Positions 25,985-51,196 of a DNA stretch of 64,000 nucleotides are shown one piece after another. This stretch comes from Heptranchias perlo (Eukaryota). The notes under the pieces were generated by a model. It saw only the letters and a list, made by a program, of their open reading frames with translations, had not been told where the DNA came from and made no database searches. Location of the stretch: contig NC_090348.1 of the NCBI RefSeq assembly GCF_035084215.1, positions 23,932,001 through 23,996,000 of the forward strand. Direction: 5' to 3'. The position numbers and the translations under genes are program-made. Position 1 is the stretch's first letter, and every line of letters starts with the position of its first letter.

Positions 25985-27735
25985 GTAAATGATTCCTTCT
26001 CCTCAGGTACTGTCCACTCTCCCATTCAAAACTGCCATCATTAATCCCTCCTCAAACCCAGCCTAGACTCCTCTGTCCTTGCAAACCATCTCCAATCTTC
26101 CTTTCTGCTTCAAAGTCCTTTGAATTTGTTATTGCCTCCCAATACCATGTTCATCTCTCTTGCAACTCTTGAATCTCTCCAATCAGGTTTCTGCCCTTGC
26201 CACAGCACTGACAGGAGTTTAACCAAAGTTACAAACTACATTTTATGTGACTGTACCTGTGATGCATTATCCCTCTTAATCATCCTCTATCTCTGTGCAG
26301 ACTTTGACACAGTGACCATGTCTCTCCTGTTTTCCACCTTGTTGGGCTTGCCTAGTTTGGTTCCATTCTTACCTTTCCAATTGTAGCGAGAGCACCTCCA
26401 GCAATGGCTTCTCATCCTGTCTTTGTGCAGTTACCTTTGGAGTTCCCCAAGGATCTATCCTTGGCACGTCCTGTTCCTCATCTATACACTTCCGCATGGT
26501 GATGCCATCTGCAGAAATGGTGTCAGCTACCATACACAAGCTGTGCCCCTCCACTGTCTGTGTTATCAGATTGTTTGACATCAAGTCTTGAGCTCCAGTT
26601 TTCTACAGCTAAACATTGGGAAAAGCAAAGTCATTTGTCTTTGATCCCTGTCATAAATTCAATTCCCTTGCCACCAATTCCATCCCAGCCACTGTCCCAG
26701 CTGAGACAGACTATTTGCAACTTCAACGTCCTATTTGACTCAGCTGAGCTTCTGACCCCAGGGGTTGTATTCTCTAGAGTTTCGAAGGTTAAGGGGTGAT
26801 CTGATCGAAGTTTATAAGATATTAAGGGGAACAGATAGGGTGGATACAGAGAAACTATTTCCGCTGGTTGGGGATTCTAGGAGTAGGGGGCACAGTCTAA
26901 AAATTAGAGCCAGACCTTTCAGGAGTGAGATTAGAAAACATTTCTACACGCAAAGGGTGGTAGAAGTTTGGAACTCTCTCTCGCAAACGGCAATTGATAC
27001 TAGCTCAATTGCTAAATTTAAATCGGAGATAGATAGCTTTTTGGCAACCAAGGGTATTAAGGGATATGGGCCAAAGGCAGGTATATGGAGTTAGATCACA
27101 GATCAGCCATGATCTTATCAAATGGCGGAGCAGGCACGAGGGGCTGAATGGCCTATTCCTGTTCCTGTGTTCCTATATCCTTTACATCACAAACACCGCC
27201 TAATTTTACACCCATATTGCCCACCTCTACCCCTAACTCAGCTTGTCTGCTGATGAAACCCTCATCCATGCCACTGTTGCTTCCAGCATCAATTATTCCA
27301 ATTCTCGTTTGGCTGGCCTCCTATCCTCCACCCTTCAACTTCAGCTCATCCAAACCTTGCTGCCTGTATCCTGTCCTCGTTGACCTACATTGGCTTCCAG
27401 CACCCCAACTCCTTGCATTTAAATCCCTTCATGGCATTGCCCCTCCTATTTCTGTAAGTTCCTCCAGCTCTACGACCACGCCCTGAACTCTCTGTTCCTC
27501 GACTCTGGCCTCTTGTGTACTCGCCCCACTATTAGCGGCCATACCTTCAGCTGCCTAGACCTCAAGCTCTGGCATTCCCTCCCTGAACCGTGTTCCTCCT
27601 CCCAAAAACCTACTTTTTTGACCAAGCTTTTGGTCACCTATCCTAATATCTTCTTTGGATCGCATTTTTTGATCAGGACTCTGAAGTGCTTTGAGATATT
27701 TTCTTACATTAAGAGCACTATATAAATGCAAGTTA
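25985..27735 (+). mobile_element. Decayed L2 LINE (RT region to 3' tail), split by a CR1 insertion
   Basis: LQSGFCPCHSTD, LCADFDTV, GVPQGSILG and DLHWLP remnants; L2 tail near 27720. Confidence 0.8.
26763..27172 (+). mobile_element. CR1 LINE 3' fragment nested in L2
   Basis: ORF 26765-27094 (SLEFRRLRGDLIEVYKIL...VWNSL) and CR1 3' UTR. Confidence 0.9.
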
Positions 27736-28674
27736 TTCTTATATGTAATTTAAAAGCAATGATAAATTTAAGTCCAAAGAAATTACTGTCTGAAACAACT
27801 GCACTTTCAGTTGCGTATTTTGAATTTTGTTATAGGATGATCATAATTGGAGTTGGTAAAAGGTTTTCTTTCTTTCTCTTTTAGGTTAGAAAGGAAGATT
27901 ATCCAAATATTTCACCATAATGACCTAATTAACTCTCTTCTGTTCTGAAGATCTCCATATATTTTTGAACATAACTCTAGACGTTTGGCAACTGAAGGAT
28001 GTGGCTGGCCATGCAGCATTGTACTGTTTTACTACTTGAAACTGAAAACTGCTTGCTCTACAGTTGAAAAGTTGCAAATCCTGCATCGAGTTTACAATCC
28101 AGCCTGCAGTATATGCTTGTTTCCACATACCCAGTGATGGATCATAAATATGTTTAGTCAAATGTCCTGCTTTTCACCTTACACTAGGGAAACTCATAAA
28201 TTACATACTGCTTACATTTTACATCATGATACAGAACAGTGGTGGAATCACTATAACTATTAAGATAAACATCTGTTAAAGGAATGGGAAGGTTGTATTA
28301 CTTTATTTACATTAAATTTCAGGAAGTTGCTTAATCTAGATTTTAACGTAAATAACCTGGAATTTGTGAAGGCCTTGAGATTTATTTCTGTTTGAATAAT
28401 GTTATAAAACAAAGAATCTGATAGTGATAGAATTTACATTACAGTGCATAACCATAATTATTGTGGAAATGTGATTTTAAGTTGCAGTTATTTTGACAAT
28501 GGGGGCGTGGATAGTGGAATCTTAATATATGGTTGAAGTACTGAGGATTGTGCTTTACTTCTGTTTCAAGAAACTTAAAATAGTATTGTCTTAATGCTTT
28601 TAAAAGTAGACAAGTGAAATTACTTTATCTTTGATACAGTATTAAACTATTTCTATTGTAATAGTGCAAAAGTC

Positions 28675-31324
28675 ATGACTAGCCAAAGCGATTGGGAAAA
28701 TTTCACTAACAGTAAAAGCAGCGATGAGAGACATCAGAAGGAAGAAAGTTATAGAACTATTGGTGACAAACAAAGTGATTCTTCATTTACAATGTTCACA
28801 AGCCCTCTTCATGCCGATACTGATATTGATACAGTTGTTATTTCTCTTCCATCTATTAGTGGTGGAGGTTCCAGAAGAAAATCAGCTGTTTGGAATCATT
28901 TTATTATGTCCACTACAGATATTGCCAAGACGATTTGCGTGCATTGCAATCAAGGATTTAGCAGAGGTAAGAAATGGTACAAGTTGTCTAATGAGGCATT
29001 TGCGCGGTCTCATCCATCTGTACTTGTACATGATTGTGGCCATGCTGCAAGTTCATGGTCTCAGCTTTACCAACATTTTTGTCTTCCCTGCGATCTCTAG
29101 CATTTCAGCGGACAATTGAAACTACTACTCAAAAAAAAATATCAAGACGACAAACCTCAGAAGCATTGAATCATTTTACTGTGTGTCCATTAGACTGCAC
29201 AAAGGTGCATTGTCACCGTGTGATAAGCAGAGGAAAGAAAAGGGATAATCTTGGTACCAGTTGTTTGATGAAACACCTATATCGGTATCATGCTTCTGTA
29301 CTTTAGCATAGGAAGGTTCTTGCATTGAGAACATCTCTCGCATATACCCACTCTATGTCCTCCTTACCATCCTGTTCACAAAATTTGGCTACAAATAAAC
29401 CCAGTCTTAGGTTGCCATCTATGGATAATACAGCTGAATACCTTTCATCTGCTGCAACAATTAAACAAGTTGTCACACCTATTAAAAAAAGTCAGAATTA
29501 TGGAAGCATTTTTCTGTATGTTCTTCAGATCTAACCAAAATAGTGTGCATCCACTGTAACTATAAAATAAGTTCAGGAAAGCAAACATCTCACTTGACTA
29601 CGTTGTTTGCTTCGACATCTTCAACAGTCTCATTGTTTTCTTGTGCAAATGTTTCATTTTCACCACTTACATTTCTATCTCATCCCTCTGTTTCAGAGCT
29701 GCCATTTAGAACACAACTTAGAGCAGCAGCCTCTGAGAGCAATAATGAATGGACTTCTCTACTAAGTGCCAAAAAAAATTACAAGCCTAGTTGCTGAAAT
29801 GATAGCACTAGGCCTCCAGCCATTTTCTGTTGTGGAGAATGTTGGATTCAATAGGTTGCTATCATATTTACAGCCACAATATTCCTTACCATCTCCATCT
29901 TCTCCAGGATTGCTGTGCCAAGAATGTATGAGTGTGTGAAGGAAACTATAGCTTTACATCTGAAAGAAGCAGAGGGTAGAGTAGTGCATTTTACAATTGA
30001 CGTATGGATAAGCAACCAAACTAGGGCATACATGACACTAACTGCTCAATGGGTAACGTTTGATTCTTCTATATGTCCACCAAATCAGAAAGATTATCAC
30101 TTCTGCTTTACTAAATGTATTACAGATTGACTGTGACTACAATGGTATAAGCATCCAGAAGCGTCTGGAATCTTTGTGGGCAGCTTGGATTGCCTCACCT
30201 GGCCTTGAGATTGGTTTCACTGTTGCTCATAATGAGCAATAGGTACTGAAAACACTGAGGAAAGTGGGCGTGCAGTTATTCACTGTTTTGCTCATAGTAT
30301 TAATATAATTGTCAGTGAAGCCATCAAGACTCAGTGAATCATTCAAAATCTTCTCAGTGTTGCATGGTAAGTGTGTGAACAAATTTGTCACTCACCAGAA
30401 GCAAAAGAAAGGCTAGATGAACTACAAAAAAATATAATTTGCCTCGTTGCCGACTGATTCAAGACATTCCAGTTAAGTGGGCCACCTCATTTTACATGCT
30501 CGAACGTCTTATTGAGCAAAAGGCTGTTGAAGAGTTATCCCTGGAGTACAGTTTTGGAGAACTTATCCACCATGATCATTAGCAATTAATGGAATCTATT
30601 TGCCACATGCTGAAACCTTTTTGAAGTTGCAAGTAAAGAAATGAGCATCCTGATTGCAGCACTTAGTCAAGTAATCCCACTAGTTCAAATTCTGATGCAC
30701 AAGATAGGTAATTTATTTGAGGAGACCGTAGGCATTGACTATGTTAAAGTCTCTGAGGGAAGCAATGGTCTGCTGCTTTTCACCTGCACTTCACGGCCCA
30801 AAGCGTATCTTCATTATAAGACATCCATCTTTGTAGGGAAGAAAGCTGAGCAGTATAGGCAGGAACTGATTAATGAGGTTGAAACTTTTTATTATACCTT
30901 GAAATGGGATGATAACTTAGATGCTACTAGCGGTATCTCTGAATCCTCTTCAAATAAGACATTTGATGATTGTGAGGATGATTTGTGGTCACTCGTGTCT
31001 AATATAAAAATGGCAGCAGTGGAACAGGTTACCATACAAAAGTCGCCAGAGAGAATGGTATTAGAGTATTTTGAGGAACAGATATTTGATCAAAGCGGTG
31101 ACCCTCTACTTTATTGGAAGCTGAAAAAGACTGTCTGGCCAGCGCTTGCAATGGTTGCGGATATTTTCCTTGGGTGTCCTCCTTGTGCTCTTGCTCCTGA
31201 AAGAATATTTAATACTACTACTGACAATTCCAGTCTAAATTATTCAAGGCCACTGCCAGAAAATGTGGAAAGACTCCTTTTTTTGAAAATGAACCTGCTA
31301 TTTATATTTCAATATCAACACTGA
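28675..31324 (+). pseudogene. ZBED4: ZBED4 unitary pseudogene (three recognisable BED fingers plus hAT transposase-derived body and C-terminal dimerisation domain)
   Basis: [78 protein letters not shown] and FLKMNL spread across shifting frames; nonsense codons at 30335, 30368 and 30580; syntenic position. Confidence 0.92.
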
Positions 31325-32162
31325 TACATCAAGTTGGCAAAATTGCAAATATATTCTGGAAACTGAGAAGCAATGTAAGATGATGCTAAAATTGTGCGTA
31401 GTTACTGAGCCGTGCAGTCTTCATTTGTGGATACTGTGCTAATCCAAGACTGAAATTAGTGCTGTAACATGTTTGTTCAGTGGGTGTTTTAAGCCATCGA
31501 GGATAGCTTCAGTGGTTATACTTCAATTCATTGTGCCTTATTTAGCGTTAATTAGGTATGTTTGTTTAAAGTTAACATTCGCAAAGTACAGCAAAGGGTA
31601 AGCAAGATTTGTTTATGCAGCTCCACAAAATAGCACTTTTCTACATCAATTTAAAATTGTGTGAAAATAAATACTATAGTGGTAAAAGTTTGAACACTAA
31701 ACAGTAAATAGTTATGTTAAAGAATAAATAAAAAGAGATGTTTGCAAACCATTAGTTGTGTTCCAATGAAGGAAAATACATTGTAAACATAATAAAAGGC
31801 TTTCACCTACAATATTTATCTGTACCAATGGTGAAGCTTTTCTTGTTTGTATGGTAATAAAAAATTAAAGTTAGTGTACAAATCTCAATCAATTTAAAAA
31901 TCAAGCTGTGTACTTACTTTAAATATAGTAAATATACAGTGTTCAGAATGATTTAGTGAAATTGTCTTTAGTATAAGTTCAACCTTATGAGCTTCAAAAC
32001 ATATATCAGTAGATAAATTAATTGTAATTAGTTTCAACATTGGAAGCGTTCAATTAAAATTGCATCAGAATGATGTCTCCTATATTGTTCCATCAGAATA
32101 TAGCACCTGCTGTTATGGATTTGCCACTTACTGGGGAAAAAATAACTGACTTGAATAAAGTC

Positions 32163-32900
32163 AATGAATGGGAGGACCCTAGGCAAGACAGAGGGTCAGA
32201 GGGATCTTGGTGTGCAAGTTCACAGATCCCTGAAGGCGGCGGAACAGGTAGATAAGGTGGTAAAGAAGGCAAATGGGATACTTGCCTTTATTAGCCGAGG
32301 CATAGAATATAAGAGCAAGGAGGTTATGATGGAGCTGTATAAAACACTGGTTAGGCCACAGCTGGAGTACTGTGTGCAGTTCTGGTCGCCGCACTACAGG
32401 AAGGATGTGATCGCTTTGGAGAGGGTGCAGAGGAGATTCACCAGGATGTTACCAGGGCTGGAGCGCTTCAGCTATGAAGAGAGACTGGGAAGATTGGGTT
32501 TGTTTTCCTTGGAGCAGTGGAGGCTGAGGGGGGACATGATTGAGGTGTACAAAATTATGAGGGGCACAGATAGGATGGATACTAAGGAGCTTTTTCCCTT
32601 CGTTGAGGGTTCCATAACAAGGGGACATAGATTCAAGGTAAAAGGCGGGAGGTTTAGAGGGGATTTGAGAAAGAACTTTTTCACCCAGAGGGTGGTTGGA
32701 GTCTGGAACTCACTGCCTGAAAGGGTTGTGGAGGCAGGAACCCTCACAACATTCAAGAAGCATTTGGATGAGCACTTGAAATGCCATAGCGTACAAGGCT
32801 ACGGACCAAATGCTGGAATATGGGATTAGAGTATACAGGGCTTGATGGCCGGCGCGGACACGATGGGCCGAAGGGCCTCTATCCGTGCCGTATGACTCTA
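32163..32900 (+). mobile_element. Young CR1 LINE 3' fragment with uninterrupted ORF2 C-terminus
   Basis: ORF 32164-32829 (RDLGV, LVRPQLEYCVQFWSP, RLRGDMIEVYK) plus 3' UTR. Confidence 0.95.
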
Positions 32901-41060: not shown

Positions 41061-41688
41061 AAGGCTACCTCCAATTCCGTGCACTCTTTTGCGCCCTTAT
41101 ACAACAATAGTTCATAGATACTGGGTATCATTCCAGTTCATCCACAAGCACAAAACGGGTAATTTTTTCTTCGACTGCACTAGGTTTTTATAAAGACTGG
41201 AGCTCAGAAATTTGTTTCTCATTTCTCTCTATATAATATAAAAAGTTAGAGCACTTTGCCATCCTGATTGAAACTAATGCTGCAATAGAATATAAATTAT
41301 GCAACAAGGGTATAAATAAAATATTGTACATTCCCATACAAGGTCTTTGCTTTTTTTTCTTTATCCATCTCAGTCTTTTCCAAAAGTAATTAAATGGGCA
41401 CCTATCTGCCCCTTTGGTTGGGGAATAATATTTGGAGCAGGATTATTATGAGGGAAATAATAATGAGAACAAATTAACGCATACTTATTCAGTGTTGCAC
41501 AGCTAGATAGAAATCCTTACAGCATATGCCAATGCGGCCTTAACGATCCTAATAAAACATGCTAGTAATGCAAGACTAATTTTATTGCACTATAAATGTC
41601 TAAAATCACCTATATAACATTCGCTTTACAAAAAGTGCAGTCAACTTAAACTCTTGACTTTTTAAGGACAATGTAATTGAATACTTAC

Positions 41689-41912
41689 AGGTATGAACAC
41701 CCTATTGCTGCAACGACATTCAAGACAGGAAAAGTGTAGATTATGAAGCGCAACTCCTTGTGAGGTAGGAACGAATACAAGAAGATGAAACCAAGTGTCG
41801 GAAAGAGTAGCCTCCAGCTCCTCCGGTCCCGAGCCCCAAGAGGCAGAAAAATTATACTGCAACCAAGAGCACGAGGCAGTACCGAATAAAAATACCAGAA
41901 AAAGGGTGATGT
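41689..41912 (-). CDS. ALG12: ALG12 coding exon 6 ([17 protein letters not shown]...[21 protein letters not shown])
   Basis: 224 nt translated by hand; PHKELRF motif of ALG9/ALG12/PIGB mannosyltransferases; preceded by a U12-type branch point; GTAAGT donor. Confidence 0.95.
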
Positions 41913-42619
41913 CTAAAAACATTCTCAGTCAAGGAAACACAAAAAATTGTAATCTGTTACTTCAGCCATTAAACTCAAAAAAAAATCATAGCATCTTATA
42001 GCACAGGAAGCAATTCGGCCCGTTGTGCCTTTAACGGCTCTTTGAAAGAGCTGTCCAATTTAGTCCCACACCCTAGCTTTTTCCTCATAACCCTGCAAAT
42101 TAGTTCTTTTCAAGTACGTGTCAAATTACCTTTTGAAAGTTCCTATGGAATCTGCTTCCACCACCCTTTCAGGTAATGCGTTCCAGATCTTAACAACCCT
42201 CTGTGTGACATGTATCTACATTTGAGGAGCCAGCAAGTAACACTGCAACTATTATTGTGCAAATTTACAGTCTATCTAATGGAAATCAATTAAAATTAGC
42301 CAAGTATACTGCAGGATTATCAAGCCCATAGAACTGAATTTAGCCTCAAACTTGAAATAGTCACCTTTTCAAATTTCCTTCCAGTGACAACTTCCAAGTA
42401 CTCCCAGGTCAGATATGGTATGGATTAGATGCAGAGAAAAGCTCCCTCGTCTCTGTTCCAAAAATGTGTTTTTTTCCCCACAGGAAGTAGTAGGCAGAGT
42501 GACATTTCCCAGATCTGCCATACTTGTGGCTCCCTGAAGTCAGATTGCCAGTGAGTGCCAAATTATGGAAAGTTTTATGCTGTGGATTCATGCCCATTAG
42601 CAATTAGAATGATTGCACA

Positions 42620-42742
42620 GGCGCTTATGGCCAGAAGGCAACAGAGATTTTTGTAACATCGGTCGGTCTGCACTGGATTTGAACCCCCACCCAAGAGGTA
42701 AAAGGACAGGGCGTTTAACTCATGGCACCAACTAGTTCCACT
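42620..42742 (-). mobile_element. tRNA-derived SINE head fragment
   Basis: Minus strand has an A-box-like TGGTGCCATGAGTTA and B box GGTTCAAATCC; no complete cloverleaf seen. Confidence 0.45.
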
Positions 42743-43354
42743 AACATCACTGCTAAATTTAAACATTTTTTTTTTAAAAAAGCAATCTGTATCTCAAAGC
42801 AATTCGGTACTGAGAAGCACAACACTTTGTTGAGTAATTCACACTTCTCTGAATGAATCAGAACGCCACAGTTAGCACCTTGATAAATGCAGTGAGGCCA
42901 CCATTTTTAAGGGTAAATTTTACGATTACGCATTCCCGGCACATAGCTTCATCTGCCAGAAATTGCATATAAGGAATCATGCACTTCTAGCTCATGATTT
43001 TTGGCTTACTAATTTTAATGGATGGAAAATCATGGACTGCACACACCCAATTTCCTAAAATGTGTTCCCAGCAGGCGAGGCCATTTCAGATGCATGCAGT
43101 TAGAAAATTTACTCTTAAAGGTTTATCAAAAATCTTAAAATGTGACAAAACTTTGTAAACACTGAGTTACAATTGGGGTGAAATTGCTGCCTTCATTAAT
43201 TTTAGGGTAATGCTGGTGTAAAGTGGTAGAAAGTGGTAGAAAGTGACTCCACCCACATAGCTTTATAATTACTGATTATCCTCAAAGTCATATGGGAAGT
43301 AAGAGCCCAATAATTTTTTTCTCTTGAACCTAATACTGACAATATAGAGATAAT

Positions 43355-43597
43355 GGGGGTGATTTTAAACCCCAAGAATGGGCGGGTTGGGGGCGGGTGG
43401 GAGTTGAAAATAGTTGTTTTTTGACTCGCGACCGCAACCCGGCTTTATTTCCGGGTTTAACGTCTGCGCGGAAAAGTACAGGCTTCCCACCGGGAATGCA
43501 AAGTCCGAACATTTTGCGGTCGTGACCCAAAAAGACAACTATTTTCAACTCCCATCCGCCCCCAACCCACCCGTTCTTGGGGTTTAAAATCACCCCC
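43355..43597. mobile_element. MITE (PIF/Harbinger/Tourist-like), 243 bp, with long terminal inverted repeats and 3-bp TSD
   Basis: GGGGGTGATTTTAAACCCCAAGAA... / ...TTCTTGGGGTTTAAAATCACCCCC; arms about 80 bp; AAT on both flanks. Confidence 0.9.
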
Positions 43598-44050
43598 AAT
43601 GAATGTCTGGGAGTAATCATAAAGGCAATAATCTGATTGCACGGATGAGGTGGTATCATACAAGCTCTCGTGATTTATAACCTTCAGTTAAACTCCAAGA
43701 TAAGATTTTAGTCTGGAAATCATTCTAGTTCGTGTTGATTTTTTTTTTGCTGGCAACTGCTGTTATGGTGACGCCAACAGCCTTTGCTCTTCATGTCAAT
43801 GTGTGATTACACTCGCATTGATGGATGAACCATTATTAAGTTGCAAGTTATCGAGAGATAATCATCGATTGCATGGAAATAAGACAGTCAGCGTATCTCA
43901 TATTTAGCCTAATATGTAGTAGGACTGTATTTTGTTTAAACTATATATTCCCAGTGAAGTCAATCACATTTAAAATAAACATTTTCCACTTTTTCTGAAT
44001 TTGCTTTTGAGTTCTTCTATAGTGTAATCTGAAGGCTGCAAAAAGGATAG

Positions 44051-44154
44051 TCCCCATTTGGAGCTCTTATTCAAGACTGTGTTGTACCAAAGTACTTCTC
44101 CCTCAGGCCATAGGAGGCGTCTCCAAAATATAGAATCCACACACACAGTTAGAC
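44051..44154 (-). CDS. ALG12: ALG12 coding exon 5 ([34 protein letters not shown])
   Basis: 104 nt translated by hand; WPEGxVLWYN motif; tttcAG acceptor; followed by a U12-like donor. Confidence 0.93.
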
Positions 44155-44258
44155 CTGAAAGGAAACATGCTGGAATGTTAATAGATGTGTTTATTTAGTT
44201 GCATGGACAAGTCTTTAAATTCAAGTCCCTGTCCAAGAACAAACAGTATGTTACTTAC

Positions 44259-44453
44259 CCAACCACACTAAACCAGCTGGTACTGCATGGCACAGACTTC
44301 TGAAAACAGAAATATGATGGTTCACTAATGATAGCAGCAGCATGAGGCCCAGGAAAATGCAAAGTTCGGATCGGAACACAATGATAGATAAAGCAGAAAG
44401 CCAGATAAAGGTGCCATGGTTCTGCTGCATCCAGGCAGTAAAAGCCAAGAGAA
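44259..44453 (-). CDS. ALG12: ALG12 coding exon 4 (LLAFTAW...[13 protein letters not shown])
   Basis: 195 nt, CAG acceptor, GTAAGT donor; ORF 44251-44484. Confidence 0.95.
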
Positions 44454-44708
44454 CTGCAACAAAGATGAAATATACAACTGTCAAATTAGTGTGCTCCTTA
44501 CAGGCTACATGCCTATAAAAATGTTACAAGAATTTTTTTAAACCTTCGCTTAATTTGCACATCAACATTTAATCCATTAGAGCAATTTAAAATTTTTATT
44601 TAGTCCAGCATAGTTCCATTGTTACATGTACGGGCTCGATGGGCTGAATGGCCTCCTTCTGTGCTGTAACCATTCTATGTATGTATAATCTCACTCACCA
44701 CCTTCAGG

Positions 44709-45160
44709 TGTCAGCCTTGGCTCAGTGATAGCACCTTCTCTGAGTCAGAAGGTTGTGGTTCAAACTCCACTCCAGCACTTGAGCACATAATGTAGGCTGA
44801 CACTATGCTGCAGTACTGAGGGAGTGCTGCACTGTCAGAGCTTCCGACTTTCTCGGATGAGACGTTAAACCGATGCCCTCTCTGCTCTGTCGTGGAAATA
44901 AAAGATAGCATGGCACTATTCAAAGAAGTTTTTCTAGTTTTCTGGCCAATATTTATCCCTCAACCAATGTTACTAAAAACAGGTTATCTGGTCATTTATC
45001 TCATTACTGTTTGTGGGACCTTGATGTGTGCAGATTGGCTGCCATGCTTCCCTACATTACAACAGTTACTATGCTTCAAAATAATTTAATTGTCTATTAA
45101 GTGCTTTGGGGCGTCCTGAGGTTGTGAAAGGCACTATATAAATGAAAGTTCTTTCTTTTT
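44709..45160 (+). mobile_element. Near full-length tRNA-headed DeuSINE (SacSINE1-like) with L2 tail
   Basis: A box TGGCTCAGTGATAG; B box GGTTCAAACTCC; Deu-like core CAGTACTGAGGGAGTGCTGCACTGTC; tail CACTATATAAATG. Confidence 0.8.
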
Positions 45161-45660
45161 GTAATATATTGGATTTCAGTCTATTAAGCTTCTAATTTCA
45201 GGTGATACTGTATAGTAGGTGTAAAAAATGGAGTCTGCTCCAATCTGAGCCTTCTGTATCCCCCCCACCCCCGGTTCTGCTAAGGTTTGAGCCATATGAT
45301 AGAAACCACTTCAATTTCATACGTTCCATTATTTTACTGTGTTTCTATGAAATGTCAAGAAGCACTAGGAAAGATTATGAATGGTGCAAAATAAATATAT
45401 TTCCATCACTACACTGTTTCACTGTATTTAAAGAGATTGTTAATAAATATATTATAAAAGCGCTCTCAACTTATTGCCAAAATGGAATTATATACACTCA
45501 TATTTCAGAATTCATGCTATTTTCTGGACATTACTATCCCCACTATAAATATGAAATATAGTTCATACACTTCCAAGTTTATTGTAGTGGCAAACCAGGT
45601 TACAGTAGACCCCATCTCCACAAAAGAATAAACAGTAAAGAATTACGAAGCTACACTCAC

Positions 45661-45834
45661 CAATAGGAAATGCAAATATATTTGGGAGGGTTCTTGAGCA
45701 GTAGAAGAGAAGATGAAACTGAGTTGCTGAGATCCAACAGTAGAAACAAGCTACTGTTGAGCCAAACTGTTTCCTAACTTCTTTCTGAAGCTTCCACAGT
45801 GCATAAATCACACAGAGACCCAGGCATCCTCGGA
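45661..45834 (-). CDS. ALG12: ALG12 coding exon 3 ([13 protein letters not shown]...[18 protein letters not shown])
   Basis: 174 nt, CAG acceptor, GTGAGT donor; FYxSRTLPN motif. Confidence 0.95.
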
Positions 45835-45927
45835 CTGTTTAAAAAAAAAACAAAGGAAGGAAGCTGAACACAATTAAATATGCTTTTGTTAATAGCAATT
45901 ACATCTCTGGTAGATTTAGAACACTTC

Positions 45928-46160
45928 AACGACAACTCGTACTTATATAGTGCCTTTAACATAGTGAAAGGTCCCAAGGCTCCTCACAGGAGCAATTATC
46001 AAACAAAATTTGACACCGAGCCACATAAGGAGGTATGAGGACAGGTGACCAAGAGCTTGGTCAAATTGATAAGTTTTAATGAGTGTCTTAAAGGAGAGGG
46101 GTAGAGAGATGGAGAGGTTTATGGAGGGAATTCCAGAGCTTGGGGCCTAGGCAGCTGAAG
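45928..46160 (-). mobile_element. L2 LINE 3' tail
   Basis: Matches the L2 3' ends at 25456 and 47010. Confidence 0.75.
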
Positions 46161-47009
46161 ATCAAAATAAATGGAGCACATAGTCCAGTTAACCCCCTAT
46201 TTGTCAACTGGAACTACTCATTAACAAGAAATTCTATCAATTCTTCCACTTTCAATTCTCTGGTACCCACTGACTTCCAGATTATACTTGTTAATAGAAG
46301 AGAGGCCATGTCGAAAAATAGGAGCAAGGCCATTAAGATAGCATAGGGTTAAAACTCAATTTTGTGTCAATATTATGCAATTCTTAAAAGGCGAGAATTT
46401 TTGTGATTTGAAAGTACAAGCCACGAAAGGTGCTTTAAATGATCCTCCATAGCCCATGAAAATAAATAGCATCCTTTTTACTAGGTCAGTGGCTGATTGA
46501 CACTTATAAGGAAATGTTTCCTCCAACAGCCTCTTCGATTGACAAGTTTTGCAACATGTAATTATTTGATCACAGTTGGGTACCTAGATATATTATCACT
46601 ACAAACCTCATCAATAAACATTCCAAAAGCCTGGAAAGGAATATTTTTTCACAAGTTAAAAGAAAAAGCAAAGCCCAAATCTTGAAATAGGTACATGAGG
46701 TAAACAACATAGCTTTTGATGTCTGATGTGAAAAAGGCATTACTTTATCCCATTTTGTAAGTTGAGTTAATTTGGGAAAAGATTAGTTGGAGAAAGTAAA
46801 CAAGAGAAAGAGAGCTTTCTGTCTTACTCTATTCAGAGAAAGAATCAGTTAGCCAGAGGCTCAAGCTAAGGTTGAAAGGAAAGGAGTCTAAAGTTACTTA
46901 GTTTAGTTGAGAGAGAAAGAGAAGTCGATCTTGCAGAACTGATCAGCTAATTCCGTAATATATGGTACAAAAGATATAGAATAAATGTATAAATACATGA
47001 ATTAGATAA

Positions 47010-47500
47010 ACAACAACAAACAACAACTTGCATTTATATAGCGCCTTTAACGTAGTAAAACGTCCCAAGGCACTTCACAGGAATGTTATCAAACAAAATT
47101 TTGACACTGAGCCACATAAGGACAGGTGATCAAAAGCTTGGTCAGAGGTAGGTTTTAAGGAGCGTCTTAAAGGAGGAGAGAGAGATAGAGAGGTGGAGAG
47201 GTTTAGGGAGGGAATTCCAGAGTTTAGGGTCTAGGCAGCTGAAAGCACAGCGCCAATGGTGCTGCGATAAAAATCGAGGATACGCAAGAGGCCAGAATTG
47301 GAGGAGCTCAAAGATCTCGGAGGGTTGTAAGGCTGGAGGTGGTTACAGAGATAGGGAGGGGTGAGGCCATGGAAGGATTTGAAAACAAGGATGAGAATTT
47401 TAAAATCGAGGCATAGCCGGACCGGGAGCCAATGTAGGTCAGTGAGCACAGGGACTTGGTGCAAGTTAGGATTCGGGTGATAGAGTTTTGGATGAGTTCA
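47010..47500 (-). mobile_element. L2 LINE 3' fragment with (TTG)n tail
   Basis: ORF 47231-47464: VLTDLHWLPV...FKILILVFK. Confidence 0.88.
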
Positions 47501-47717
47501 AATTTACAGAAGAGAGAGACAGAAGACCAGGAATAACTGATGATTCTGGAAGACTCGCAGAAGGCATAACCTAGATGACATAGCCAGCCCACTGTAAGAA
47601 AAAACAACCGCAGATTGGTGTAGGAGAGGATTCAACTTTGACTCAATGGTGTAACCACTTCCAGACAAGGAAGTCATAAGCCTTTTTACTGATACCACAG
47701 ACTTAAAAAAAAGACAG

Positions 47718-48722
47718 CTTTTTTTTTTATTCGTTCATGGGATCTGGGCATCGCTGGCAAGGCCAGCATTTATTGCCCATCCCTAATTGCCCTTGAGAAG
47801 GTGGTGGTGAGCCACCTTCTTGAACTGCTGCAGTCTGTATGGTGAAGGTTCTCCCACAGTGCTGTTAGGTAGGGAGTTCCAGGATTTTGACTCAGTGACG
47901 ATGAAGGAACGCCAATATATTTCCAAGTCGGGATGGTGTGTGACTTGGAGGGGAACGTGCAGGTGGTGTTGTTCCCATGCGCCTGCTGCCCTTGTCCTTC
48001 TAGGTGGTAGAGGTCGCAGGTTTGGGAGGTGCTGTCGAAGAACCCTTGGCGAGTTGCTGCAGTGCATCCTGTGGATGGTACACACTGCAGCCACGGTGCG
48101 CCGGTGGTGAAGGGAGTGAATGTTTAGGGTGGTGGAAGGGGTTTCAATCAAGCGGGCTGCTTAGTCCTGGATGGTGTCGAGCTTCTTGGGTGTTGTTGGA
48201 GCTGCACTCATCCAGGCAAGTGGAGAGACTTCCATCACACTCCTGACTTGTGCCTTGTAGATGGTGGAAAGGCTTTGGGGAGTCAGGAGGCGAGTCACTC
48301 ACCGCAGAATAGCCAGCCTCTGACCTGCTCTTGTAGCCACAGTATTTATGCGGCTGGTCCAGTTAAGTTTCTGGTCAATGGTGCCTCCCAGAATGTTGAT
48401 GGTGGGGGATTCGGCGATGGTAATGCCGTTGAATGTCAAGGGGAAGTGGTTAGACTCTCTCTTGTTGGAGGTGGTCATTGCCTGTCATTTGTCTGGCACA
48501 AATGTTACTTGCCACTTATCAGCCCAAGCCTAGATGTTGTCCAGGTCTTGCTGCATGCGGGCACAGACCACGTCATTATCTGAGGGGTTGCGAATGGAAC
48601 TGCACAATGTGCAATCGTCAGCGAACATCCCCATTTCTGACCTGATAATGGAGGGTAGTTCATTGATGAAGCAGCTGAAGATGGTTGGGCATAGGACGCT
48701 GCCTTGAGGAACTCCTGCAGCA
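47718..48722 (-). mobile_element. Non-LTR retrotransposon (CR1/L2 clade) 3' kilobase with poly(A) tail
   Basis: GVPQGSVLCP, FADDCT, HSLHHRRTVAAVC; ends AATAAAAAAAAA. Confidence 0.85.
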
Positions 48723-49624
48723 ATATAAATGCTATTGTTTGCTTGATTATTCAACTACAAAAGACTATACAAAGTGTAATCCTTCAAACTGAAATTCTAA
48801 AACCGAGCAATGTTACCTTATGTTAAATTAAACTGTACTCTTGCAATTTCAAAACCAAGTTTTTGTACTATTTGCGATGGTCACACCGATAACCATGATG
48901 TCTTTGCACACATAGAGTTAAGAAAATAAGTGATGGTACAAAAACAACGTTGTGCGCCATTCATTCCTTCATCTCTGGTAAGCCAACAATTAAACTGTTT
49001 CCAATCAATGCTGAACTTTCTTCAGGTGACTGGCAGAATATTTCCTTATCATTCAGGTTGGCAATTTAAGACAACCCAATAAGCCACATTTGGCACCACA
49101 CATTAAACTCTAGACATACAAGATAAATTCCAATATATTTTGTTTATTGATTGTGGCTATTGGGAAATTAGAATTTTCCTAATCATCCTCATCTTAATGT
49201 GTAGTTGATTCCCAAAAAATGAATATCCAGTCCTAACACAGGCAAAAAGAGCATTTCTACAGAGACGGTGCAGTACAACCTACTACTCTTCATGCATGTG
49301 CCAATATTAACAGTTTTCTTGGGCCACAAACAGGATTAGGAAGTGAAAGCCATGCCCCGATGAGCTGAACCAACAATATTCAGGAATCATTTCCATTTGA
49401 TTAGAATAGGATTTTTGACAAGATGTTCAGTTACTATAATGATTTACACACTTAAATAATAAACTAGATCAAATATTGAAAGTATTTTCAGTGAGGCAGA
49501 AGCAGAGGGTGCAGAGAGATTCCTGATGTGGTATCAATAAGATCACAGCACTAGCTTTATACTCCATGGGGTGTTAGTCAAATTGGAGTGAGAGTGCCTC
49601 CTTCAGCGGGTCTCACATACTGTT

Positions 49625-49795
49625 AGGAACATAGGAACAGGAGTAGGCCATTCAGCCCCTCATGCCTGCTCTGCCATTTGATAAGATCATGGCTGATCTG
49701 TGATCTAACTCCATATACCTGCCTTTGGCCCATATCCCAAAAAGCTATCTATCTCAGATTTAAATTTAGCAATTGAGCGAGTATCAATTGCCGCT
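49625..49795 (-). mobile_element. CR1 3' tail fragment, same family as 26763-27172
   Basis: Reverse complement is close to 26990-27170, with an internal deletion. Confidence 0.8.
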
Positions 49796-49902
49796 TTTGC
49801 TGTTCACTACAAAAGTGGCAGCATAACTGCAACCTATAACAGATCACTTAAAGAAATGTATATTCTTAGTTATAGTAAAAATAGATGCCTATATTCTATA
49901 CA

Positions 49903-50039
49903 TGATGTGGAGATGCCGGTGATGGACTGGGGTTGACAATTGTAAACAATTTTACAACACCAAGTTATAGTCCAACGAGTTTTATTTGAAATCTACAAGC
50001 TTTCGGAGGCTGAGGAAGGAGGAAGCCTCCGAAAGCTTG
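49903..50039 (-). mobile_element. Penelope-derived mini-element with hammerhead-ribozyme core and 13-bp TSD
   Basis: Same terminus as the 25574 element; TSD TATATTCTATACA at 49890-49902 and 50040-50052; CTGAGGA-A-GGAGG-AAG-CCTCC-GAAA at 50010-50034 on the + strand. Confidence 0.75.
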
Positions 50040-50232
50040 TATATTCTATACAGCATATAAAGGGTTCTAATCAAACTATTCCTTGTCTGGTTTAATGCAA
50101 AAAAAAAACTAATTATAGTTTTTGCAGAATGTGCTTCGATCATTTTTCCCCTCCAAGATTTTTTTCTCACTTTCGAACCCAACTGCATTGACTGCAGTGC
50201 ACGACGATTTAACCTGAATTAGACAGTCATAC

Positions 50233-50365
50233 CTAGAAGCTGCGAGTAAAACTTGGACACGTCAAGAGCCGAGAAGATGGAAGCTGCTGGTGCAGATAGC
50301 AAGGAAATAAAAAGCGGCCCCACGAAGGTCCTTGGAACAACACCGGGAAACTCGTGGTGATCGTA
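50233..50365 (-). CDS. ALG12: ALG12 coding exon 2 ([17 protein letters not shown])
   Basis: 133 nt; poly-T plus TAG acceptor; GTATGA donor; [14 protein letters not shown] motif. Confidence 0.95.
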
Positions 50366-50499
50366 CTACAAAAAAAAAAATGCCAACGAAAGAGCTTCAC
50401 ATCTTTCTCAGGGAGAATCAGAAATTGAAATAATAAAAACAGGAAGAGACGCAATGCGCCCAGAGGAGCTGGTGAACAGCCTCTGGACCCAAGGCCTAC

Positions 50500-50664
50500 C
50501 TTCTCCAGGTGCAGGCGGTGGTAGAGCAGATCGTGCGCCGCTTGCAGGTTGAAGCTTTCCTCCACTTTAGTAAAAGGACAGCTCAGCAGGTGGATGGAAG
50601 CGGCCAGAGTGACGAGCGCCAGAAGCAGCAGCTCCCTCTGCACAGCCCCGCTCCTCTCAGCCAT
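50500..50664 (-). CDS. ALG12: ALG12 first coding exon (Dol-P-Man alpha-1,6-mannosyltransferase; [14 protein letters not shown])
   Basis: GCC-adjacent ATG at 50664 opening ORF 50233-50664; [10 protein letters not shown] motif; GTAGGC donor; the nine exons total 1491 nt. Confidence 0.95.
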
Positions 50665-51196
50665 GTTGTGTTCACGTGGAGAGTCAAGGGGTCAGAGGCG
50701 AGTAAAGGACAGGACAGGAGTCAAAGTGATGTAACAGCAAATGCAAACCCAAAGTTATCACCACCGCGCTGCACTTCATAATTAGAACATTGGACACTTG
50801 CAAAATCGCTGCCTGAAACAGACTGTGTTCAGCAAATATTTCAGAAGGAATACTGTCGTATTTGGTCTGTGTGTTCATTGCAGAGGCACTTAGTATCCGA
50901 ATATCCCACAATTCTCCTCGTGCTGGAGATGAGTTCAGGCAGAGTGCTGCACGAAGCAATAAAAGAAAACAAAGCAAATGCAGAACATGACATCCCCCAC
51001 GTGCAAATACCCAGCGCAGGCCCCCGGAGACTGGTAACAACATCCAGTTCAAAGGAGACCTACACAGGATGTCACTACCCCAGTGTGCATTAACTGCGAT
51101 TGAGTCCCGAGCTCTCAGTATTTAAAAGCCCGGGCTCCTTTTATGTCATGTTTCTGCATTATCAGCAATAACTCAGTCTGCTTGTTGACTGTACTC

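Follow-up and report, generated by a model that had tools for sequence, protein, structure and literature searches.

Among bony vertebrates, in which zbed4 has been called present (PMC7786948), ZBED4 is described as a domesticated transposase of the Ac family of hAT elements (PMC3606216). The latter study inferred an early jawed vertebrate origin of the gene and found that every ZBED4 orthologue which it examined adjoins ALG12 (its Table 1); cartilaginous fishes are mentioned neither in its text nor in any of its four supplementary files.

We examined 64,000 bases of the genome of the shark Heptranchias perlo (the window, contig NC_090348.1, positions 23,932,001 to 23,996,000), which carry a single-exon coding relic of ZBED4 on the plus strand at 28675..31324. 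Transcribed unitary pseudogenes are genes disabled in place, with no working paralogue, that are still spliced; the ZBED4 locus is a transcribed unitary pseudogene, that is, a case of a known kind of event that differs from the usual ones in its unusual parent gene, itself a domesticated transposase. We hold it to be highly probable that the relic is the shark's own ZBED4, broken yet transcribed and spliced, which served the host as a protein through most of the history of sharks before it decayed. A preliminary description, made from the sequence alone, had regarded the gene as dead in place, and it is indeed dead as a protein, although still transcribed and spliced.

Like bony ZBED4, the relic has an ALG12 neighbor, BED fingers followed first by a catalytic and helical region and then by the dimerisation domain, and an uninterrupted coding stretch placed behind a non-coding first exon, as in human ZBED4. 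Unlike bony ZBED4, it lacks an open frame and has three fingers rather than four, with far shorter linkers; it also carries Asp and His at the first and second catalytic positions, respectively, and an extra spliced intron. With Hermes and other active hAT elements it has in common the T-I-D-x-W context and the CxxH, Trp and Glu positions, but, unlike them, it is a single-copy sequence with several fingers and a broken frame, and with no terminal inverted repeat (TIR) found.

ZBED1 (L003) and three other hAT-derived frames of the same assembly (L005, L006 and L007) resemble the relic in their hAT origin, BED finger and dimerisation domain; the four frames, in contrast to it, are intact, contain one finger each, are 21-28% identical to the ZBED4 query and are distant from it in the tree. 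L003 is identical to a ZBED1-like protein of Heptranchias perlo and falls into the same cluster as two catshark proteins. The other three, encoded on the minus strand in single frames (L005:1468-3465, L006:967-2937 and L007:1483-3492; 656-669 residues), also combine one BED finger with a dimerisation domain, and their exact sequences are missing from the protein collection; L005 and L007 may represent further domesticated hAT genes, because they are without the catalytic Glu. Short hAT-like fragments with stop codons on other contigs (L009, L011, L012 and L013) are probably old transposon relics.

Lesions of the coding relic and their verification

As had been proposed, ZBED4-like peptides run colinearly through the relic but are broken. 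Frameshift-aware alignment to 10 bony-vertebrate ZBED4 references covered 773-853 codons at 49-54% identity, with coelacanth ZBED4 scoring 1657 on the relic strand versus 41 on the reverse strand. Against each of the 10 references the relic displays 14 frameshifts (near 28973, 29002, 29052-61, 29489, 29601, 29636-69, 29757, 29897, 30099, 30242-57, 30430, 30617-20, 30738 and 30806); all seven regions listed in the preliminary description are among them, some 10-20 bases off, and seven had been overlooked. Stop codons number six with eight of the references and five with the other two, and are found at 29304, 29763, 30240, 30335 (TGA), 30368 (TAA) and 30580 (TAG), the last three being those already reported, while 29763 and 30240 adjoin frameshifts and may hinge on the placement of the break. 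There are also several in-frame deletions, including one of 7 codons near 30812 that takes out most of the second LDPRY region, in agreement with the multi-codon loss seen earlier near 30800.

A functional ZBED4 needs a continuous frame of ~1,150-1,270 codons, and the relic has none: the longest stop-free frame in a six-frame listing of 28600-31400 comprises 236 codons. The relic frame is open from 30614 to 31324, and the best matches of its last 236-codon frame, with 1.84 billion representatives searched, were ZBED4-named proteins of two bony fishes and a frog, at 44-45% identity and E values near 1e-42. Translation likely once started at the ATG at 28675, and the old stop appears to be read through by two codons.

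We estimate as practically negligible the probability that these breaks are assembly errors in an intact gene. Eight sequencing runs are listed, all from one sample, which may be the assembly's own source and would to that extent leave room for such errors; the lesions are thus known from one sample. Contigs were examined from two DNA runs (X1 and X2) and two RNA-type runs (X5 and X6), the presumed RNA nature of which rests on splice joints missing from the DNA runs. These separately assembled contigs nevertheless carry every lesion: those of X1 and X2 each run uninterrupted through 27700-32050, without differences or gaps relative to the assembly, those of X5 and X6 span 28858-31779 and 28858-31854, respectively, with the same lesions and one substitution, at 29309, and in no run contig is any frame repaired. 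Moreover, indel errors do not typically look like point nonsense changes, losses of several codons or radical replacements at invariant positions, and only 2 of the 14 frameshifts adjoin runs of 7 equal bases. Frames are open in four neighboring exons (the 469-codon BRD1-type exon, a bromodomain exon, the first ALG12-type exon and one EGF-type exon), as they are in the four other single-exon hAT-derived frames of the assembly, for 667-693 codons. The earlier remark that all neighboring BRD1, ALG12 and CRELD2 exons are clean thus holds for the four exons examined.

Position 29309 is T in both DNA runs and C in both RNA-type runs, and may be a heterozygous site masked in the DNA contigs or a site of antisense RNA editing. 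Three extra bases near 31306 in the X6 contig, missing from the assembly, X1, X2 and X5, restore the bony-like length of the conserved C-terminal end. This variant is likely a segregating in-frame deletion, and the decay of the relic may therefore be ongoing.

Orthology, genomic position and transcription

A tree of the catalytic and C-terminal regions of 66 proteins, including 16 ZBED4, coelacanth ZBED6, two shark ZBED1, three other frames of this genome and 43 other hAT proteins (matches of at least 520 residues), joins the relic to ZBED4 (SH-aLRT 100, stem 0.63) as sister to all bony ZBED4 (support 92), which is the position predicted by the species tree. A mixture-model tree of 25 of the same rows yielded 100/99 for the relic with ZBED4 and 91/85 for its sister position, and in both trees a stem of 0.63-0.85 common to the relic and bony ZBED4 sets them apart from other hAT proteins. 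The relic thus groups with ZBED4, and not with free hAT transposases (100; 100/99), as its earlier identification would require.

The relic is located between two genes of the minus strand: a BRPF-family gene read as BRD1, with a large first coding exon at 18826..20235 (EPL1 and PHD, 469 codons open), and a GT22 mannosyltransferase gene read as ALG12 at 41613..50667 (first exon near 50509-50667, family match at 41613-41990), beyond which there is an EGF-type exon on the plus strand. The names BRD1, ALG12 and CRELD2 are those which we presume from family matches and gene order; a search for the CRELD2 N-terminal family gave no match within the 64-kb window, and this presumed name relies on one EGF-type exon and gene order. 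The syntenic position claimed for the relic agrees with Table 1 of PMC3606216 in that it adjoins an ALG12-type gene. Two single-exon GT22 frames of 558 and 608 codons are also present ~38 kb apart on the same strand (G000:C13:21821415-21822689 and 21859900-21861186), possibly as a tandem duplicate.

The relic DNA has a single match in the genome of 3.25 billion bases, and the next-best protein match of the ZBED4 query elsewhere in it is only 28% identical. Neither DNA nor protein searches revealed another ZBED4-like copy, as judged from the best candidates scored in an assembly that may be incomplete. Between 27500-28700 and 31324-32150 there is no inverted match of at least 12 bases, so that the hallmarks of an active or recent hAT transposon, TIRs and many copies, are replaced here by a single copy with no TIR in the tested flanks. 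A crude self-comparison, which masked 17% of the window, found no repeat in the 4.5 kb around the relic (27741-32196), the second longest repeat-free gap in the window, with LINE-type fragments on both flanks.

The relic could in principle have never been a shark host gene, and would then be either an immobile transposon decaying since about the time of the shark/bony split or a separate free hAT landing. We judge this to be very improbable: it is at odds with the long stem common with bony ZBED4 and apart from other hAT proteins, with the same site adjoining ALG12, and with the single copy in the genome.

A CpG island at 23300..24800 (GC 0.57, CpG observed/expected 0.91) lies between BRD1 and the relic, and contains, beside the BRD1 5′ region, the 3′ end of a non-coding exon 1 on the plus strand (24737..24768, GT donor at 24769). 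In X5 and X6, a loose end at 27883 maps exactly onto 24737-24766, yielding a GT-AG intron from 24769 to 27884, followed by non-coding exon 2 at 27885..28291 (AG acceptor 27883-27884, GT donor at 28292). In the same two runs, a GT-AG joint missing from the DNA runs connects 28291 to 28860; the corresponding intron of 568 bases (28292..28859) ends inside the old coding sequence, takes out the likely old ATG and is spliced in part of the transcripts, with unspliced contigs across 28262-28887 present too. The 3′ untranslated tail (31325..31860) has AATAAA at 31666, 31723, 31791 and 31856, and the RNA-type contigs end within it, at 31779 and 31854. The island likely serves as a two-way promoter common to BRD1 and the relic, and transcription of the relic likely persists because exon 1 lies in the island, which would be kept for BRD1. 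No full-length protein product would be expected from this RNA.

In our estimate, it is improbable that the locus, its full protein gone, has been retained in a new role, be it through a non-coding RNA or through a short C-terminal product that includes the dimerisation domain. While such a role would fit the spliced RNA-type contigs in both such runs examined, a 227-codon ATG frame covering the dimerisation domain, the absence of lesions from the last 515 bases (chance 0.015 for the last gap) and the repeat-free surroundings in the crude self-comparison, a lesion-free gap that long would arise anywhere with a chance of 0.27, and changes affect 7 of 37 invariant positions of the last segment and 7 of 14 just before it, which is no better than elsewhere. 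Furthermore, the open frame includes ~23 wrong-frame codons between two cancelling shifts, lies, with other ATG frames ahead of it, more than 2 kb along the RNA, and varies in its last codons between contigs. Selection on the C-terminal frame (30614-31324) was considered and found unsupported.

BED fingers and the catalytic region

Three BED fingers and the hAT dimerisation domain are recognized by Pfam in pieces of the relic, all on the plus strand. Finger a (28867..29020), with two frameshifts and a 4-codon deletion, corresponds to the bony I/II pair, its flanks being closer to I; finger b (29142..29295), in the place of bony III, has lost a zinc-binding cysteine to a 3-codon deletion; and finger c (29483..29630), with two frameshifts, is bony finger IV. 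No further BED finger relic was found at 24800-28700 (best scores 26-40), and a single relic finger takes the place of bony I and II. Finger a groups with these two (85/85). A first finger tree, without most finger IV rows, had placed it outside of I and II (90/74), whereas the complete finger set gives 72/0, with neither a+I nor a+II rejected; AU tests are compatible both with a lost finger and with one that was never duplicated (p 0.50 and 0.47). The flanks of finger a favor unit I in five of six references, with most single flank scores within the shuffled range. In the complete set, finger b is nearer to IV than to III, but III is not rejected (p 0.26). The contrast drawn earlier between three recognizable fingers and the four of mammalian ZBED4 is borne out as to their number and does not imply that a finger was lost, as an ancestral state fits it too; the three fingers of the relic may be ancestral or a product of deletion.

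The first catalytic position of the relic, an Asp codon at 29999..30001, aligns with the Hermes motif, and Asp is found here in 34 of 49 other hAT proteins as well. Bony ZBED4 has Gly, Ser or Ala at this position: the 16 ZBED4 rows show Gly (12), Ser (3) or a gap, and all 129 bony ZBED4 proteins compared carry a residue other than Asp. The simpler reading would be that the Asp of the relic is a retained ancestral residue, although it could also be derived from a Gly codon by one transition. Its presence, as in free hAT elements, is a point in favor of a relic that never was a host gene. At the second position (30228..30230), where 16 of 16 aligned ZBED4 have Asp, the relic has a His codon one base away from it, and this His likely arose after gene loss. 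The catalytic Glu is kept, at 31199 inside the C-terminal dimerisation domain (31064..31297); the triad thus reads Asp, His, Glu, and a complete DDE is absent. The DDE domain or triad is described in PMC3606216 and PMC7786948 as kept across ZBED genes, unlike what is seen in the 129 ZBED4 proteins without the first Asp. Searches with a 66-residue core piece of the relic in the PDB gave no matches, and the ESM Atlas returned only generic hAT clusters.

Divergence, age of the loss and other cartilaginous fishes

Sharks and bony vertebrates separated more than 400 million years ago. At 198 comparable positions that are invariant in 24 bony ZBED4, the relic has changed at 38 (19%). Coelacanth or lungfish, when left out, are changed at 2% of the corresponding invariant set, as compared with 19% for the relic, and left-out teleosts at 14%, as compared with 24.5%. 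We fitted divergence at the protein level as two parts, one scaled by site rate and one uniform. For the relic, the constrained part was 0.51 and the uniform part 0.20 (0.12-0.30); the two teleosts gave 0.49 and 0.06 (0.01-0.12), and 0.41 and 0.085 (0.02-0.15). For the uniform part, the relic and the teleosts thus have overlapping bootstrap intervals. Differences in the relic range from 21% at the slowest sites to 76% at the fastest. Such a pattern likely results from long constraint and later drift. By simulation, the excess corresponds to ~0.05-0.07, and to no more than 0.09, nucleotide substitutions per site, and the 3-5 stops in the relic core are consistent with 0.05-0.09.

Between whale and zebra sharks, dS is 0.061-0.111 over about 50 million years (PMC13100897), from which we calculate 0.6-1.1 per billion years. 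With rates thus borrowed from other sharks, ZBED4 would have been lost roughly 45-150 million years ago. The loss could be 2-3 times older, because the ZBED1 branch is short in this genome (0.027 versus 0.069 in catshark, in the 66-protein tree) and lower rates are expected in cold-water sharks (PMC10587355). Slow shark clocks (PMC13100897, PMC10587355) would also be convenient for a transposon decaying in place since the shark/bony split, as would the failure of a suggestive search to find an intact cartilaginous-fish ZBED4 protein. The differences, however, track the site-rate profile of functional ZBED4, and at the rates of PMC13100897, drift over the >400 million years since the split would have produced ~0.25-0.5 substitutions per site, against the 0.05-0.09 estimated here.

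With the 236-residue relic frame as a query, none of 954 candidates obtained a score. No intact ZBED4 of a cartilaginous fish was encountered among 120 of the 368 matches of frog ZBED4 or among 91 matches of a 44-residue relic query, none of which is named from a cartilaginous fish: 82 are named from tetrapods, and the 9 unnamed ones resemble tetrapod or lungfish proteins at 77-99.9%. The protein collection searched does include cartilaginous-fish proteomes. Teleost, coelacanth and most mammalian ZBED4 escaped the 44-residue search as well, since ~14 of 40 common words were needed, and an intact orthologue would pass this word filter with a chance of 0.94, 0.71 or 0.44 at 10, 15 or 20% difference. 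A metagenome scan gave 384 pattern matches, none of them confirmed. A wider absence of ZBED4 among cartilaginous fishes is therefore suggestive only. The main shark splits are older than the clock estimate of the loss at published rates and, for this reason, a clade-wide absence would imply that losses occurred independently, that genes are unannotated or that the clock is slow. The loss itself, earlier ascribed to this lineage, holds, but "this lineage" may be too narrow. The literature searched, which covered few subscription papers, yielded no report of a shark ZBED4 or of its loss.

The tree, the ALG12 site, the lesions, the single copy and the divergence pattern agree with the proposal that domestication predated the shark/bony split and was followed by loss. 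On the favored reading, that of a former host gene, an early jawed vertebrate would have acquired a hAT transposon between BRD1 and ALG12; having become immobile, the element would have been retained as a DNA-binding protein that had three BED fingers and probably a full catalytic DDE triad. Selection would have lapsed later in the Heptranchias perlo lineage, with ~0.05-0.09 neutral substitutions per site since then.

ZBED4 has been linked to cones and Muller cells in the human retina and to Muller cells only in mouse, where its mRNA is reported in all tissues analysed (PMC3154125, PMC3365051); a connection between the loss of ZBED4 and shark vision is at this point no more than a question raised.

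A broader scenario, in which ZBED4 was domesticated before the jawed-vertebrate split with three fingers and a complete active site, and later disappeared from most cartilaginous fishes or from all of them, is offered tentatively, and we incline to doubt it. If it were true, the slowly evolving genome of this shark would keep a still-transcribed fossil of an early ZBED4 stage, and the loss of the first Asp and the duplication giving fingers I and II would be bony-vertebrate innovations, which may explain why ZBED4 became fixed in bony vertebrates and was dispensable in sharks. The relic provides direct evidence for insertion before the shark/bony split, shows that an old transposase domestication can be undone, and serves as an outgroup for ordering the steps of domestication, such as finger duplication and loss of the catalytic aspartate.
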